A stretch of DNA of 64,000 bases from a virus: the IMG/VR virus record IMGVR_UViG_3300028610_001991; one strand, written 5' to 3'. Of the stretch, positions 37,327-57,972 are shown in pieces (within the stretch, counting starts at the first letter, position 1; each line of letters opens with the position of its first letter). The notes beneath the pieces are model-generated. The model searched no databases, was not told where the DNA came from, and saw only the letters and a program-made list of their open reading frames with translations. The translations under genes and the position numbers were made by a program.

Positions 37327-37464
37327 ATGCCAAAAATAACAGAAGTAAATATAATGTTTCCTACTGAGTAAGATGTACACAGAAAGAGACGCGTAGGGGT
37401 ATCTGTGAAATTTTCCTGTAGGGATAAGTGGGAGTTAGCAAAATACATATTAGAAAAGGAATAA
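37327..37464 (+). pseudogene. small ORF interrupted by an in-frame TAA (37369-37371)
   Basis: MPKITEVNIMFPTE*DVHRK...ILEKE*, abutting the thyX RBS. Confidence 0.4.
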
Positions 37465-37466
37465 TC

Positions 37467-39575
37467 ATGAAAGTAATTGAACCTAGTTATGAAATTATTA
37501 AGTATGATGGAGGCAGTGAGGAACAAGTCTTAAAGCACCTGGAGGCTTGTGGGAGAACTTGTTATAAATCAGATCATAAGATTAGACAAGGATCAGCAGA
37601 GACATTTGTTAAAGGGTTAATGAAAGCAGGCCATGAGGCAATGATAGAGCATGCTTCTATAGCTACGGGAATGAGTACTAAAAACTATGAGTTTTTGAGA
37701 GATTATAGGTTATTTAATGGTACAACAAAACATATGAGCGATCCTGATATTGGTAAAGATAATGTTTTATCATTTAAAAAGGATTGGTATGCAAAGACTG
37801 CTCTTAATTTTATGAACTTTTCTTATCACGATAATATAGGGTTTCTTGTTTCTGGTAATTTCAGAGCTTGGAGAAATCTACTTCATGGGTTTAAACTAGC
37901 GCCTGATTTATTATCTACTTTTGTAAGGTTTTTTCCTGTTATGTTTTCTGATTTTGATATTCCAAAAGGAAACTCAGGTAACAGAGAAGTAGTTGGTATT
38001 ATGTCTGGTCTGGATAAAATGCTCCCAGCAGTAAAGTTGCTGCATAAGTATGTCTCTGTTCGTTTTATATGTAATCGGGGTTTTTGTTATAGTGAAGATA
38101 CTAAAGTGTTAACCAATGAAGGGTGGAAGTTTTTTCCTGAGTTAAAAGGAAATGAGATGATTTTAACTAAAGACGATAACAATAATATTGTAGAAGAACC
38201 TATAAAAGAAATTGTTATAGAGGATTGGAATACAGACTTACTCAGTTTTAAAAATACCGAGATGGATTTGCGTGTTACGCCTAACCATAATATGTGGGTT
38301 CTTGATGCTGAGAGTGGTGGTTATAACTATGAAAAAGGAAAGTTTATTAAAGCCAAGGATATGACCAATTCTAAGTACAAGATAGATAGGGGCGGTAATT
38401 GGAAAGGACAGATAGTGGATAGAATAAATCTACCGGATGAGATTGAGTTTGTATCTTCTTTTAATAAAAAGAAATGTAAAGGATTTTCAGTCAGCCCAGA
38501 GCCTTTTTTGGAGTTATTAGGGTTATGGGTTACGGATGGTACAATATATCCACCGAAAAATGGGAGGGGAAGAAGGGTATCCATACGACAGACTAAGCCT
38601 ATAGCACATAGAAGAATAATAGAATTACTTGATAAATTGAATTTTAAATACTCAACACATAAAAATGATATTAGGATAAATTGTATTCCTTTATGGCGGT
38701 TTTTAATGGATGAGTTTATGCTACCTATTAGTGGGATAAAGTCTTATTTTTTAACCCTTCCGGTTTGGCTTAGAAATTTAGATAGTAACTTACTACAATG
38801 TTTTATTAAAGGAGTATTATTAGGAGATGGGTTTGAGGATAAAAGCAGAAAATTAGTATATTCTTCTTCTCTAACCTTTTGTGAAAACTTAGTCGAGTTA
38901 GCTTTAAAAACAGGTAGGTCTGCCTCCATAAGGGAATATCGCCCTAAAGGACATAAAAGATATTGGTCGGATGGAAGAATAAGCATATGCCAAGCAAGTT
39001 ATGTTGTTAATATAGGAAAAGAACCTTATGGGGTTTTAACTAAACATTCCGAAGTAGCTAAGATAGGAGAACCAGAAGCTTATCTTGGTCTGGTATGTTG
39101 TGTAGAATTAGAGAAACATCATAGATTATATGTTATGAGAAATGGAAAGGCTTGTTGGTCAGGAAATACACATGAATTGGTACGTATGAGGCCATGTAGT
39201 TTTGCACAAGAATCAACCAGATACGTAGATTATTCTGATGAAAGTGATCGTGGTAAAGGTGAGATGAAAGCAGTTAAACCAGAATGGTTTACTCAAGAAG
39301 ACCGGTTAGAGACGTGGATGATTGCTATGGAGCAGGCAGAAATTAAATATCAAGAATTACGTAAGCTAGGGGCTAGTCCTGGTGAAGCAAGAGGTGTTTT
39401 GCCAATCGATGTCAAGACAGAAATTGTCATTACTACTAACTTGGCTGAGTGGTATCATATATTTAAATTGAGAACAGCAAATGCCGCACACCAGTCTATG
39501 CGACAGTTAATGCGACCGGTATGTGAAGAGTTTAAAGATGATGAACCGGAAATCTTTGAAGATATAACCTGGTAA
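37467..39575 (+). CDS. thyX: FAD-dependent thymidylate synthase (intein-containing)
   Basis: GHEAMIEH, THELVRMR..SFAQESTRY after splicing, ARGVLP; start moved to ATG 37467 after AAAGGA. Confidence 0.9.
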   Translation: MKVIEPSYEIIKYDGGSEEQVLKHLEACGRTCYKSDHKIRQGSAETFVKGLMKAGHEAMIEHASIATGMSTKNYEFLRDYRLFNGTTKHMSDPDIGKDNVLSFKKDWYAKTALNFMNFSYHDNIGFLVSGNFRAWRNLLHGFKLAPDLLSTFVRFFPVMFSDFDIPKGNSGNREVVGIMSGLDKMLPAVKLLHKYVSVRFICNRGFCYSEDTKVLTNEGWKFFPELKGNEMILTKDDNNNIVEEPIKEIVIEDWNTDLLSFKNTEMDLRVTPNHNMWVLDAESGGYNYEKGKFIKAKDMTNSKYKIDRGGNWKGQIVDRINLPDEIEFVSSFNKKKCKGFSVSPEPFLELLGLWVTDGTIYPPKNGRGRRVSIRQTKPIAHRRIIELLDKLNFKYSTHKNDIRINCIPLWRFLMDEFMLPISGIKSYFLTLPVWLRNLDSNLLQCFIKGVLLGDGFEDKSRKLVYSSSLTFCENLVELALKTGRSASIREYRPKGHKRYWSDGRISICQASYVVNIGKEPYGVLTKHSEVAKIGEPEAYLGLVCCVELEKHHRLYVMRNGKACWSGNTHELVRMRPCSFAQESTRYVDYSDESDRGKGEMKAVKPEWFTQEDRLETWMIAMEQAEIKYQELRKLGASPGEARGVLPIDVKTEIVITTNLAEWYHIFKLRTANAAHQSMRQLMRPVCEEFKDDEPEIFEDITW
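38085..39167 (+). mobile_element. intein with LAGLIDADG-type endonuclease in ThyX (361 aa)
   Basis: Starts CYSEDTKVLT, ends RNGKACWSGN followed by Thr+1; LGLWVTDG and GVLLGDG blocks. Confidence 0.9.
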
Positions 39576-53486: not shown

Positions 53487-54389
53487 ATGTCAGAAAATGA
53501 AGTAAAAAAAGAGGATGGATCGTCTATACCCATGGATGCAAGAATGGATATACCGGAAGACGCTCCAGGAAATTTAGAGCCGAATATACCTCAGCCTGAG
53601 CCTGAGTTCCTGCGGCCTGGTGTAAATAAGTCTGAAGGAGGTGTACCACACCCTGAGTTCCCGGCAAACGATGAAAATAAACCTGAAGAAAATATACCTC
53701 AGCCTGAGTTTACAAATGAATCAGTAGCAGCTGTACCCCCTCCCCCGCCGCCGCTAATTAATGCAGCAGAAGATAAATTTATACTGGATGAGCCTGTAGT
53801 AATAGACGACTCTGCAGTAACAAATGAATCTGTAGCAGAAGATGAACCTGCAGTAACAGGTGAACCTGTAATAACAGATGAGCCTGCAGTAACAGGTGAA
53901 CCTGTAATAACAGATGAGCCTGCAACAGGAGATGTACCGGCAGCAGGAGATGAGTTGCAAGAAGCTGATGCCCCTATCATGAGTAAAAAACAATTGCGCG
54001 GCCTTGTAAAAGAAGCAGGTATGAAAATCCCAGGATACAAAAAATTATCTGCAGAAAAATTACAGAAGGCAATTCATGAGTATGTTCCTCCGGTAGTAGT
54101 AACAGATGAGCCTACAGCAGATATTAAAGATGAAGTACCTGGCGAAGTACCTATTGAAGATACTGAAGAGGGAGCACCTAATGAAGAGCATAAAGGTAAC
54201 TCAGAAATAAGGCACCTTAAAAAAGTTGTAAGAGCAGAGTTAAGTAAAAATTACGCTGAGCGTATACTTACTGCGTTTGATACAGCACTTAAGGAAGAGA
54301 ATGATGGTTATCCGAAAAAGATATTACTTGGAGCTATAAAACATATTCTTAATCCTAAAATTGCTGCTAGTATTGCCCCTAAACTGTAA
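53487..54389 (+). CDS. acidic Pro-rich protein with a Rho-N/HeH-like helical motif
   Basis: Low-complexity acidic region; MSKKQLRGLVKEAGMKIPGYKKLSAEKL. Confidence 0.6.
   Translation: MSENEVKKEDGSSIPMDARMDIPEDAPGNLEPNIPQPEPEFLRPGVNKSEGGVPHPEFPANDENKPEENIPQPEFTNESVAAVPPPPPPLINAAEDKFILDEPVVIDDSAVTNESVAEDEPAVTGEPVITDEPAVTGEPVITDEPATGDVPAAGDELQEADAPIMSKKQLRGLVKEAGMKIPGYKKLSAEKLQKAIHEYVPPVVVTDEPTADIKDEVPGEVPIEDTEEGAPNEEHKGNSEIRHLKKVVRAELSKNYAERILTAFDTALKEENDGYPKKILLGAIKHILNPKIAASIAPKL
53841..53924 (+). repeat. 36-bp coding tandem repeat (about 2.3 copies)
   Basis: GATGA(A/G)CCTGCAGTAACAGGTGAACCTGTAATAACA. Confidence 0.9.
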
Positions 54390-54643: not shown

Positions 54644-54933
54644 AAAATTATCTAGGCACTAAAGACGTATATAAGCTTTTACGCATTAGTAAATCAGCCA
54701 TTAATAACTACGTAAAAACGGGCGTATTTAAAGCAAAAAAGAAAGATCCTTTTGGAAAATCGATTAGGGTTTATACATGGGAAGATATACGGCAATTAGC
54801 TTTATTAAGGTACGGACCTATAGTTACTAAGGAATTTATAATCAAATGTCCTTACGGTACCTGTAAAAAGCCAATGAAGGTCTCGCTATTATACTTAGCA
54901 TATGAAGAATTAAAAAGTAAAAAGTATATTTAA
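54640..54933 (+). CDS. MerR/excisionase-type HTH protein
   Basis: YLGTKDVYKLLRISKSAINNY...RVYTWEDI. Confidence 0.7.
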   Translation: MKNYLGTKDVYKLLRISKSAINNYVKTGVFKAKKKDPFGKSIRVYTWEDIRQLALLRYGPIVTKEFIIKCPYGTCKKPMKVSLLYLAYEELKSKKYI

Positions 54934-55187
54934 TGGAGAGTAATATGGAAGATCTACAAAAACAGATTGAAGATTTAATTAATAGAAATTGTGCTGAAAA
55001 TGAGAGTAATACACCTGATTTTATTTTAGCTGAGTATCTACTCGATTGTTTAAGAACATGGAATAATACAACGAAAAAAAGAGATAAGTGGTACTCAGTT
55101 AATTTAGAGCCTGGTAATAGTAGTTTTGCTTGCTGTACCGACTCTGATAAAGCAGTTAAAAATGCCCATCATGAAGAGGTACACTAA
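54933..55187 (+). CDS. hypothetical phage protein
   Basis: ENESNTPDFILAEYL motif. Confidence 0.6.
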   Translation: MESNMEDLQKQIEDLINRNCAENESNTPDFILAEYLLDCLRTWNNTTKKRDKWYSVNLEPGNSSFACCTDSDKAVKNAHHEEVH

Positions 55188-55194
55188 AATATAC

Positions 55195-55735
55195 ACAAGG
55201 GCAACGATACTGACACCCTTGCAAGAAAACGGACAGTAGAGGAAAAACTTCTTCTGGTATCACGGCAGTCGAGAAGCCAAGTAAACAGAGAGGATAAAGG
55301 AGGTTAAACCCTCCTCCACGCGAGAGCCGCGTTAGGATCAACTGGTGGTTGCTGAGGGATTGCGCATAACCGATGTAATTGACTGCCACGTTTTATTATC
55401 TAGTAGAGCGGACGATATCCATCCTTACTAACGTAAGGAGACAGAGGCGAGTTCATAGAAATATGTTCCGGATTTTCTATGCTCTATAAAGATAGAGGCT
55501 TTTGTGGTTTAGCCTACTGTTCAATTAAACACTCCCTCTTCAGAAACGTGGGCTACGTTTTTGGCGGTTTTCAAGGTTTGTCTGTATCAAACCTTGGTTA
55601 TGGAAAAAGGGAGATTTGTAACTTCCTACTATGATGGCTGAGGGTGTCTTGCTGCCGGTGAGGAGTTCTGCAGAATTTCAAGACACGGATGGATCTACTG
55701 GGAAACCGGGGAGAATGCGGCCCGATGCCATGTCT
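55195..55735 (+). ncRNA. candidate large structured non-coding RNA (about 540 nt), family unassigned
   Basis: No credible ORF; at least 10 hand-identified helices, including long-range ones; GAAA tetraloop. Confidence 0.65.
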
Positions 55736-55749
55736 TTATTTATGTTATT

Positions 55750-55992
55750 ATGATTATAAATAAGAAACGTATCTTTTGGATCTTAATATGTGGTTTGTGG
55801 GTATTTAATATTTATATGCTCTTTTTTAGAAGAACACAGCCGCAAGAACACGTTATTAAGTTTACCAATATTGAGGATTTACGAAAAGAAGATCCTGAGG
55901 ATCCTCGCATAAAAGAATTTGAAGAAATAATTGAAGAATGGAGGCCAATAATTGAATTGAATATTAGAGCATGGATTAAATCAAATGAATGA
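55750..55992 (+). CDS. small single-pass membrane protein
   Basis: N-terminal TM helix. Confidence 0.5.
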   Translation: MIINKKRIFWILICGLWVFNIYMLFFRRTQPQEHVIKFTNIEDLRKEDPEDPRIKEFEEIIEEWRPIIELNIRAWIKSNE

Positions 55993-56226: not shown

Positions 56227-56249
56227 ATAGAACAACGAGGAATAACATA

Positions 56250-56600
56250 ACATTTTTACCCAGTCGTTATAGACGTAGGTTCAAACCAAACTGGGTAAAT
56301 AAAAGCTGTGACTGAATAACTGATGTAGTGTGAGTAAGGTATATACCACCCTGAGGAAATGCAGGGTAAAAAGCTTACTTAGCTTGGTATGGTAGTTCTC
56401 TGTGGAAATTAAGGTATTCTCTTTTATAAATGGACCAATTTATAAAAGAGAAGTCGGCACGTATGGATATACTCTACTCTACCGTGTCCGTGGGGGTAAA
56501 GCCCTTCTCCATTTATTTCTGGGACGTACGCGACTTCCAGAAGGATGACTGAAAATTTAACTGCAGACTTAACTTGTAGGTAAAATGACAATCCTATCGG
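56250..56600 (+). ncRNA. candidate structured non-coding RNA (about 350 nt), family unassigned
   Basis: 10-bp, 8-bp, 15-bp and several 6-bp stems; no ORF in track. Confidence 0.55.
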
Positions 56601-56628
56601 CTTTTTATTCTAAAGGACAACACTAAAA

Positions 56629-56856
56629 ATGGAATTAATAACTTATAACAATAACAGACCTTTTATTAAAGACACAAATATATCTCTAGCAGAGATTGCT
56701 AAAAGCTTACAGGGAGAATTGTCGATCGATAACATTTTAAAATCGTTCCCTAGCTTAACCCTTAGTCAAGCAATTGTAGCTTTTCTCTTTTGGAAAAACA
56801 GTAAACATGAAAAACTGTTTACTGAAAATAGTGAAGCTGTAGCTAATATAGCTTAA
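56629..56856 (+). CDS. DUF433-like (antitoxin-type) DNA-binding protein
   Basis: RPFIKDTNIS...SIDNILKSFPSLT pattern. Confidence 0.65.
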   Translation: MELITYNNNRPFIKDTNISLAEIAKSLQGELSIDNILKSFPSLTLSQAIVAFLFWKNSKHEKLFTENSEAVANIA

Positions 56857-56883: not shown

Positions 56884-57162
56884 ATGTCAGAAAACACAAA
56901 CATTTATGTCGGGAATATCCCTTATTCCGCAGACGAAGGATCGTTGAGGGAGCTATTCGTTAAACACGGAGAGGTAGAATCTGTGAAGGTAATAACTGAC
57001 AGAGATTCTGGTAAATCTAAAGGATTTGCCTTTATTAACATGATGGATGAAGAAGGAACTCAATCTGCAATTAGTAATCTACACGAATCTGATATGGACG
57101 GTAGAAAATTGGTTGTAAATATTGCCAGGCCCCGTAAACAGCAGGAAAATAGAAGCTATTAG
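56884..57162 (+). CDS. RRM (RNP-1) RNA-binding protein
   Basis: RNP2 IYVGNI, RNP1 KGFAFINM, LVVNIAR. Confidence 0.95.
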   Translation: MSENTNIYVGNIPYSADEGSLRELFVKHGEVESVKVITDRDSGKSKGFAFINMMDEEGTQSAISNLHESDMDGRKLVVNIARPRKQQENRSY

Positions 57163-57373
57163 AGGCGGCATTTATCTTTAGGTAAAGAGCTTAAACCCAG
57201 CTATAAGAAATTACTCACACACAAATTTATCAAGGATATATCAAGACAGTATTACCATGTTTGCAAACATAGGTATGTACCCGGGACTATCAGATACAGC
57301 ATCTGTAAGAGTAACTGTATATGATAGTTCCGGCTGTGTTGATATGTATCTCTACATTGAGCCTACTGAATAA
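57163..57373 (+). pseudogene. start-less, frameshifted paralog of 57694-57972
   Basis: RHLSLGKELKPSYKKLL...VYDSSGCVDMYLYIEP aligns to the intact copy, with a deletion/frameshift near 57300. Confidence 0.8.
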
Positions 57374-57497
57374 TTATACTGTGGGCTTCCCCTGGCCACT
57401 GACAATGGAAGCATCTGTACGGGCAGCCATGAAGTTTCCCCAGCCCGTGAATAACCGGATATCAGGGTGGCTTACTATATAATTATTTAGGACAGAA

Positions 57498-57704
57498 GTG
57501 AGGATTTATTTTATGAGTTGTGACCATCACATAGAAAAGAGAAATTTTATATGTATTAGGGATTCTGCTATTGTTTATAAATGTAGCTGTGGTATGTATG
57601 TTTTTAATTCTACTCCAGAGGGAGTAGTAGCTGAGGATAGTGACCGTATGACAGATACTTTGCGGAATGTGCTGCAGGCAGTAAAAGGTATGTTTGGTGG
57701 GTAG
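57498..57704 (+). CDS. small Cys/His-containing hypothetical protein
   Basis: CDHH...C...CSCG. Confidence 0.45.
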   Translation: MRIYFMSCDHHIEKRNFICIRDSAIVYKCSCGMYVFNSTPEGVVAEDSDRMTDTLRNVLQAVKGMFGG

Positions 57705-57972
57705 ACATTTATCTTTAAGTAAAGAACTGAAACCTGGCTATAAGAAACTTCTCAAGCATAAATTTGTTAAGAACATATCCAGACAATACTACAGTGTTTG
57801 TAAACATAGATATAAATCAGGCACTATTCGTTATAAAGCGGATACATTTTCCGGGATTCGGGTAACCGGTTATGATAGTTCCGGTTGTGTTGGTATGTAT
57901 ATCTACATTGAGCCTAAAGATAAAATTGAAGATGTAAAAAGATTTATAGAAAAAGAATGGAGGGTAGTATGA
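57694..57972 (+). CDS. hypothetical basic protein
   Basis: ORF; has a decayed paralog upstream, which supports coding status. Confidence 0.65.
   Translation: MVGRHLSLSKELKPGYKKLLKHKFVKNISRQYYSVCKHRYKSGTIRYKADTFSGIRVTGYDSSGCVGMYIYIEPKDKIEDVKRFIEKEWRVV

Follow-up and report, generated by a model that had tools for sequence, protein, structure and literature searches.

Large structured RNAs carried by phages, such as GOLLD and ROOL, are few and their function is not understood. Both are often located by tRNAs (PMC5737381), and they have recently been shown to form RNA-only cages (PMC12286853). As for bacteria, long G+C-rich intergenic regions are predictors of structured non-coding RNAs, as used in the GC-IGR/DIMPL approach of the Breaker laboratory (PMC8723152, PMC6429828). 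The locus analysed here is a gap between genes, located at positions 55188-55749 of a 64-kb stretch of DNA (the window, i.e. the whole stretch analysed) from a phage-like uncultured genome of about 187 kb (contigs of 187,021 and 187,060 bp) with a G+C content of 34%. The anomaly in the sequence is real, and the gap is a fair candidate for an RNA. It had originally been predicted to encode a novel large ornate non-coding RNA; the anomaly, the RNA candidacy and the lack of a known family stood up to analysis, while the global architecture did not. As a whole, the claim of a novel large ornate RNA is not demonstrated and a single large ornate fold is not established.

The plus strand carries nearly all genes up to about 58.7 kb. 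The features surrounding the gap are the following:

Further upstream of the gap: ThyX gene with a LAGLIDADG insert
Upstream of the gap: genes for a Dda/exonuclease V-like helicase, an actin-like ParM/Alp protein and UDG
54933-55187, plus strand: 84-aa gene, PHROG family 31227 (phrog_31227), with its stop codon (55185-55187) abutting the gap
55188-55749, plus strand: candidate structured RNA region, ORF-free and G+C-enriched
55750-55992, plus strand: 80-aa ORF with a predicted N-terminal hydrophobic helix and without Shine-Dalgarno sequence
Between the 80-aa ORF and the DUF433 gene: very acidic 52-aa ORF
56629-56856: DUF433 protein gene, domain confirmed
56884-57162: canonical RRM protein gene, domain confirmed, 1.1 kb downstream of the gap

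Tightly coupled small ORFs precede the gap, the 84-aa gene being the last of the run. The homologues of its product range from 56 to 145 aa and are aligned over most of its length. Concerning the 80-aa ORF, its status as a real gene is uncertain on sequence grounds: its sole match among 5.8 billion clustered proteins is itself, its start codon lies inside the loop of an 8-bp hairpin made entirely of A-U pairs (55736-55763), and one annotation starts it at a later ATG, giving a product of 58 aa. The lineage is thinly sampled, with the closest helicase relative showing 42% identity in IMG/VR and at most about 42% among GenBank phages. As a separate observation, a 715-aa ORF (37428-39575, plus strand) matches ThyX (Thy1) over two separate stretches, and a LAGLIDADG domain is located between them; this looks like an intein or a homing-endonuclease insertion in the thymidylate synthase gene.

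The gap had been described as non-coding, and no ORF was found in 55188-55749 under code 11, under code 4 (TGA=Trp) or with TAG read as Q. The longest stop-to-stop frame lying mostly inside it is 78 aa in code 11, and neither of the two alternative readings provides a full-length frame across the region. Each of the three translated read-through frames contains eight stops, of at least two kinds. The ten longest of 30 listed stop-to-stop fragments had no significant match in PHROGs (best E 0.039), and two read-through frames of the gap had no match in Pfam. The predicted enrichment in G/C was also borne out, with a G+C content of 0.448 vs. 0.343 for the window, the highest among all gaps of at least 150 nt; coding parts of the same phage also attain 0.45-0.475. 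Two exceptions aside (a slightly longer stretch holding a 52-aa ORF, and one cut by the window end), this is the longest ORF-free stretch in the 64-kb window. The cumulative G-C skew does not turn at the gap. Since the gap sequence is identical in the ENA and Logan assemblies, which differ elsewhere by a repeat indel, it is not an assembly artefact; the sole difference between the ENA assembly and the window is a repeat indel in a gene 1.3 kb upstream. A 36-nt repeat indel distinguishes the assemblies at 53824-53888, in the gene for an acidic, repeat-rich protein of 300 aa (300 vs. 288 aa), and all 16 apparent mismatches between locus L006 and the window fall inside this repeat. The phage is present in ENA assembly ERZ27251120 and in run SRR5210996.

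Known RNA families were searched with cmscan and Rfam 15, using the gathering score for the whole window and E ≤ 10 for regions of 1.2 kb and, with relaxed filters, 576 nt. At the gathering score, no match was found in the window, and at E ≤ 10 the gap region gave only eukaryotic families at chance level. None of the models for ROOL, GOLLD, OLE, group I and group II introns, RNase P, tmRNA, HEARO or ribozymes matched at E ≤ 10. ARAGORN found neither tRNA nor tmRNA in the 64-kb window, and the 3-kb stretch downstream of the gap had no Rfam match. The original prediction had recognised no tmRNA, RNase P or group I/II intron signature; Rfam 15 and ARAGORN agree, and the Rfam comparison that it called for (ROOL, GOLLD, OLE and introns) assigned no family to the gap. 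Individual candidates were rejected as follows: ROOL (RF03087), with no covariance-model match at the gathering score or at E ≤ 10; GOLLD (RF01998), with no cmscan match and no tRNA in the window; OLE (RF01071), with no cmscan match and small phage ORFs as neighbours vs. the expected oapA/ybzG neighbourhood; group I intron, with no cmscan match, an 84-aa protein that is complete with respect to its homologues and an 80-aa ORF without homologues; group II intron, with no cmscan match and no reverse transcriptase ORF in or beside the gap; and tmRNA or RNase P RNA, with none detected by ARAGORN and no Rfam match.

The gap also stands out by its local stem-loops. Perfect Watson-Crick helices were counted and compared with 100 dinucleotide shuffles, those with a loop of at most 30 nt being considered as local. 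The counts were as follows:

Local helices of at least 6 bp: 8 observed, shuffle mean 2.9, observed count reached by 0/100 shuffles
Local helices of at least 7 bp: 4 observed, shuffle mean 0.77, reached by 0/100
Local helices of at least 8 bp: 3 observed, shuffle mean 0.15, reached by 0/100
Long-range helices of at least 6 bp: 30 observed, shuffle mean 25.2, reached by 16/100
Long-range helices of at least 7 bp: 9 observed, shuffle mean 6.1, reached by 14/100
Long-range helices of at least 8 bp: 3 observed, shuffle mean 1.55, reached by 20/100

The density of perfect hairpins, seven per 560 nt in the gap vs. 2.06 ± 1.44 window-wide, is the maximum of all windows. The gap is thereby established as a dense string of about ten stem-loops and, as far as local stems are concerned, the description of a region packed with helices holds (three stems of at least 8 bp vs. 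0.15 expected; 0/100 shuffles). All the motif coordinates quoted in the original prediction were correct. The local structures, all given for the plus strand, are the following:

55196-55221, plus strand: hairpin CAAGGG/CCCTTG, 6-bp stem with a 14-nt A-rich loop
55239-55254, plus strand: hairpin GAGGAA-AAAC-UUCUUC, 6 bp including one G-U, pair probability 0.87
55422-55439, plus strand: hairpin UCCUUAC-UAAC-GUAAGGA, 7 bp, probability 0.98 on both strands
55454-55497, plus strand: two abutting hairpins, CAUAGAAA/UUUCUAUG (8 bp, 12-nt loop) and CUCUAU-AAAG-AUAGAG (6 bp)
55532-55613, plus strand: candidate three-way junction, CUCCCU/AGGGAG enclosing hairpins 55541-55563 and 55572-55596 (the latter a perfect 9 bp)
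55644-55686, plus strand: hairpin GUGUCUUG/CAAGACAC, 8 bp, with an inner CUGC/GCAG, z -1.9
55698-55709, plus strand: hairpin CUGG-GAAA-CCGG, GNRA loop, one U-G pair, probability 0.69

At the level of segments, the plus-strand z-score is -3.2 for 55188-55263 and -2.6 for 55441-55506, and the 3' tail (55701-55749) shows no gain in stability over its shuffles (z +0.9). The sub-structure with the best support is the candidate three-way junction at 55532-55613, with a z-score of -3.8 on the plus and -5.4 on the minus strand, neither of which was reached by any of 200 shuffles. In searches of the window and of 100 of the collected loci, a covariance model of this putative junction detected no further copy, nor did it find a paralogue in the neighbouring non-coding stretches; likewise, none of the gap hairpins recurs elsewhere within the 64-kb window. 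Another observation concerns the hairpin loops at 55202-55215 (14 nt) and 55581-55587 (7 nt, in the perfect 9-bp hairpin), which are complementary (AUACUGA/UCUGUAU, six of seven pairs) and which the minimum free energy (MFE) structure pairs as a long-range helix; on a rough count, such a match is not unlikely by chance.

As a whole, the gap is more stable than dinucleotide shuffles, the control proposed with the original prediction: the MFE z-score is -2.5 on the plus strand, where one of 100 shuffles was as good, and -3.7 on the minus strand. The plus-strand sub-domains, the 3' tail apart, have z-scores ranging from -1.8 to -3.8, with -2.9 for 55401-55700 and only -1.8 for the 5' 213 nt. When composition is regressed out over the 64 kb, the windows at 55301-55700 rank 4, 5, 11 and 25 of 1274, while those covering 55101-55500 are ordinary with respect to the genomic background (z about -0.4 for the 5' half).

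The G-U pair of the GAAA tetraloop hairpin had been taken as an argument for the plus strand. This argument is weak: G-U counts in high-probability helices are similar on both strands and, while the absolute MFE is lower on the plus strand, the z-scores are better on the minus strand (-3.7 and -4.6). The composition of the ten hairpin loops, with 38% A vs. 23% U on the plus strand (hand count) and GAAA and UAAC among the loops, mildly favours the plus strand. All neighbouring genes are on this strand, and the upstream genes overlap or abut each other. No sigma-70-like site (at least 9/12) was found just upstream of the gap on the plus strand and no intrinsic terminator at its 3' end, so the gap would not be a discrete transcription unit. 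Since the upstream genes are coupled and no plus-strand terminator was found between them and the gap, plus-strand read-through transcription is the natural expectation.

As for the long-range pairings, two of them deserve a description:

55264-55387, plus strand: candidate 124-nt domain closed by GGCAGUC/GACUGCC, closing-helix probability 0.89 in the plus-strand ensemble, with hairpins AGGAGG/CCUCCU (55298-55315) and ACGCG/CGCGU (55318-55332) inside
55417-55424 with 55687-55694, plus strand: proposed helix AUCCAUCC/GGAUGGAU, a perfect 8-bp complement

The z-score of the first domain is only -2.0, and long-range helices as a class are not above chance. The second helix is missing from both the MFE and the maximum expected accuracy (MEA) structures, and helices of this type are expected by chance. 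A further proposed pairing, TAGTAG (55401) with CTACTG (55695), was found at its positions and is imperfect, with five Watson-Crick pairs and one U-G wobble; its CTACTG arm and the CTGG-GAAA-CCGG hairpin share three bases (55698-55700), so both cannot form fully. When the architecture of the original prediction was enforced, it reached -159.9 kcal/mol vs. -173.6 for the free MFE and a shuffle mean of -156.4 ± 6.8. The local stems are common to the MFE structure, the MEA structure and this model, whereas the three differ in all of their long-range pairs. A single multi-domain "ornate" fold is not borne out by these data, the long-range helices occurring at shuffle frequency and not being favoured energetically.

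By sequence comparison, the gap is an orphan in every collection searched. Its sole other copies are 100% identical, and no diverged homologue was found by sequence in IMG/VR, GTDB genomes, GenBank phages or PLSDB plasmids, nor via a neighbouring gene in JGI metagenomes. GenBank phages and PLSDB plasmids, searched by blastn in its distant mode, contained no match to the gap. Synteny was followed from several genes. For the 84-aa gene, nhmmer and blastn detected no gap-like non-coding sequence in 80 IMG/VR loci and two metagenome contigs; a 39-nt match in one locus (L020) was rejected as an A+T-rich intergenic hairpin beside an unrelated gene. No gap-like sequence was found at five helicase loci (best relative 42%) or at 40 JGI loci carrying RRM genes. 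Five IMG/VR phage contigs, compared by BLAST over their full records, contained no RNA-like sequence, and RRM genes elsewhere have no large gap alongside. Searches for the 300-aa and 80-aa neighbours found no relatives. Because these protein-coding neighbours, too, had no relatives where searched, the orphan status of the gap says little for or against a function.

Patterns and translations were also used as probes. A DNA pattern based on the junction gave 37 chance matches in IMG/VR, with no extended similarity, and degenerate probes derived from read-through translations (three in IMG/VR, two in GTDB species genomes) provided no relative. An exhaustive HMMER search of one read-through frame against 1.8 billion protein representatives returned its own spurious 51-aa ORF and one ankyrin protein (E 1e-5). 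The latter corresponds to the read-through frame in 55188-55350 (…VNREDKGG*TLLHARAALG…), as one 25-residue stretch with an internal stop codon that aligns to several repeats. Since Pfam gave no Ank match in the gap frames even at E ≤ 10, this match was judged to be due to chance. Finally, members of the 90% clusters indicate that a strain of 99% identity is represented by a JGI contig of 37.7 kb.

Downstream of the gap, the neighbourhood appears to change between strains. An 88% relative was found both in the ENA sample of this phage and in one JGI sample, and its contigs begin at the RRM start codon in these two independent assemblies; the segments downstream of the RRM gene are rearranged compared with the window. 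This suggests that strains are separated by a mosaic or recombination boundary located shortly before the RRM gene (window from 56860 onward). Several side observations were made in this region. One of the contigs of the 88% relative, L091, rejoins the window at 99% identity over 57497-57622, and L090 and L091 both match 57706-57962 at 77%. The gap that follows the RRM gene (57163-57500, plus strand) contains the most stable 300-nt window of the 64 kb (57201-57500, composition-corrected z -4.6). Its first 210 nt or so are about 90% identical to the relative L090/L091, and its 10-bp outer stem, CCGGGACUAU/AUAGUUCCGG, is unchanged between the window and the 88% relative. In the apical part of the hairpin, the two differ by several substitutions and an indel of 5 nt, none of them giving compensatory pairs. 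Another ORF-free stretch (56227-56628, plus strand) follows the acidic 52-aa ORF; windows starting at 56301-56401 have a perfect-hairpin content second only to 55188-55749, and the stretch has no Rfam match.

Several explanations compete for these observations. The gap might be non-functional filler, either the remains of a gene after decay or a piece of foreign DNA acquired recently at a mosaic junction, with a G+C content that comes from its origin and hairpins without a role. The orphan status is in line with this, as are the mosaic neighbourhood, where the RRM gene is the exact starting point of the contigs of the 88% relative and the segments beyond it are shuffled, the G+C values reached by coding parts of the phage, and the ankyrin-repeat protein matching a read-through frame. 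Decay does not, however, explain a 20-fold excess of perfect local stems of at least 8 bp. The tested frames give no protein-family signal, and the ankyrin match involves a single protein out of 1.8 billion, over a short stretch interrupted by a stop codon in a region where all three read-through frames carry repeated stops of different kinds. Moreover, dead DNA is usually deleted quickly by phages. Leftover DNA is, in our view, a possible but doubtful origin. A cis-acting mRNA element, i.e. a hairpin string within a polycistronic transcript with no independent RNA, is a rather unlikely explanation. It could take the form of mRNA processing or stability signals (entry sites for RNase III or RNase E, or protection of the 3' end of the upstream message) or of a long leader controlling the downstream 80-aa gene. 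Such a role would fit a gap that begins where a tightly coupled operon ends with its stop codon and that has neither promoter nor terminator of its own; it would also fit the excess of local stems over chance, which the global fold does not share. The 80-aa ORF, without Shine-Dalgarno sequence and with its start codon in the A-U hairpin loop, would suit a controlled gene, but it has no homologue and may not be real. The RNase III sites of the T7 early mRNA are single hairpins of about 60 nt. The gap resembles them in having intergenic stem-loops within a same-strand polycistronic unit and no promoter or terminator of its own, and differs by its raised G+C and by some ten stems over 560 nt, far longer than known phage processing sites; it is rare for a phage genome to devote so long a stretch to processing.

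Watson-Crick pairing is perfect in nearly all of the stems, and their scores on the minus strand are at least as good as those on the plus strand; both features would also suit a cluster of palindromes acting as DNA, whether as protein-binding sites, as a replication or recombination site, or as hairpins extruded from single-stranded DNA. The neighbourhood indeed includes genes for replication and partition (helicase, actin-like ParM, UDG, ThyX). Origins and promoter regions are, however, usually A+T-rich with direct repeats, whereas this gap is the most G+C-rich of all and its direct repeats are merely short two-copy matches. In addition, its loops of 4-14 nt differ among themselves, unlike those of operator palindromes, no gap hairpin recurs elsewhere in the window, and the skew does not turn there. 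We consider a role at the DNA level improbable. Still further down the scale stands the idea that the gap belongs to one of the known large RNA classes (group I or II intron, ROOL, GOLLD, OLE, RNase P or tmRNA) and has diverged too far to be detected, which appears very improbable. A length of about 550 nt and the phage setting do resemble ROOL and GOLLD, and the same phage carries mobile elements such as the LAGLIDADG insert in ThyX. Against this, Rfam 15 gave no match to any of these classes for the 576 nt even at E ≤ 10 with relaxed filters, and ARAGORN detected no tmRNA or tRNA in the window. Nor do the flanking ORFs represent two parts of a split gene; alignments of the 84-aa protein with its homologues cover most of its length.

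The reading that we tentatively prefer, with a probability of about 0.4, is that of a functional plus-strand structured RNA element of no described family, probably processed from a polycistronic transcript. It is favoured because of the length of the gap, its raised G+C in an A+T-rich phage and its excess of local stems, and because phages seldom keep 560 nt of dead DNA. Counted against it are the absence of a homologue of any divergence in the searches, and hence of covariation and of signs of purifying selection, the nearly all perfect Watson-Crick stems, which fit DNA palindromes equally well, the ordinary 5' half, the better minus-strand z-scores, the disputed long-range pairs, and the RRM genes found elsewhere without a large adjacent gap.

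According to this structured-RNA reading, the gap, a non-coding segment of a same-strand gene block, would most likely be transcribed on the plus strand by read-through from the operon that precedes it; its transcription, the strand and the processing are what we infer. The transcript would form a string of about ten independent stem-loops, including a compact three-way junction at 55532-55613, a tertiary "ornate" fold being conjectural. The RNA might then be freed by processing and act as a stable RNA, e.g. as a scaffold or decoy, and its partner could, speculatively, be the RRM protein encoded 1.1 kb downstream. A stronger version, which we hold to be unlikely, would make the gap the founding, single-lineage member of a new class of large phage RNAs, cut from an early or middle polycistronic transcript and serving as a scaffold or decoy, possibly bound by the RRM protein. 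If this were true, the small set that includes GOLLD and ROOL would gain a further, unrelated class, found in a 187-kb phage that encodes an RRM protein of its own, and an RNA-protein pair could become available for study. Hairpin density and G+C single out the gap, which is currently a well-defined candidate only; because it has no relatives, it is not yet distinguishable from a processing region or leftover DNA.

Compared with the known systems, the gap differs from ROOL and GOLLD by having no covariance-model match, no tRNA genes in the 64-kb window, no family, no covariation and no support for a global multi-domain fold. It shares with them a size of several hundred nucleotides, a phage location, a long G+C-enriched ORF-free gap and many stem-loops. 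With regard to the GC-IGR/DIMPL approach, regions remain candidates until homologues covary, and the gap has no homologues; it is nevertheless an outlier of its window in both length and G+C, which is precisely the rule by which this method selects its regions.
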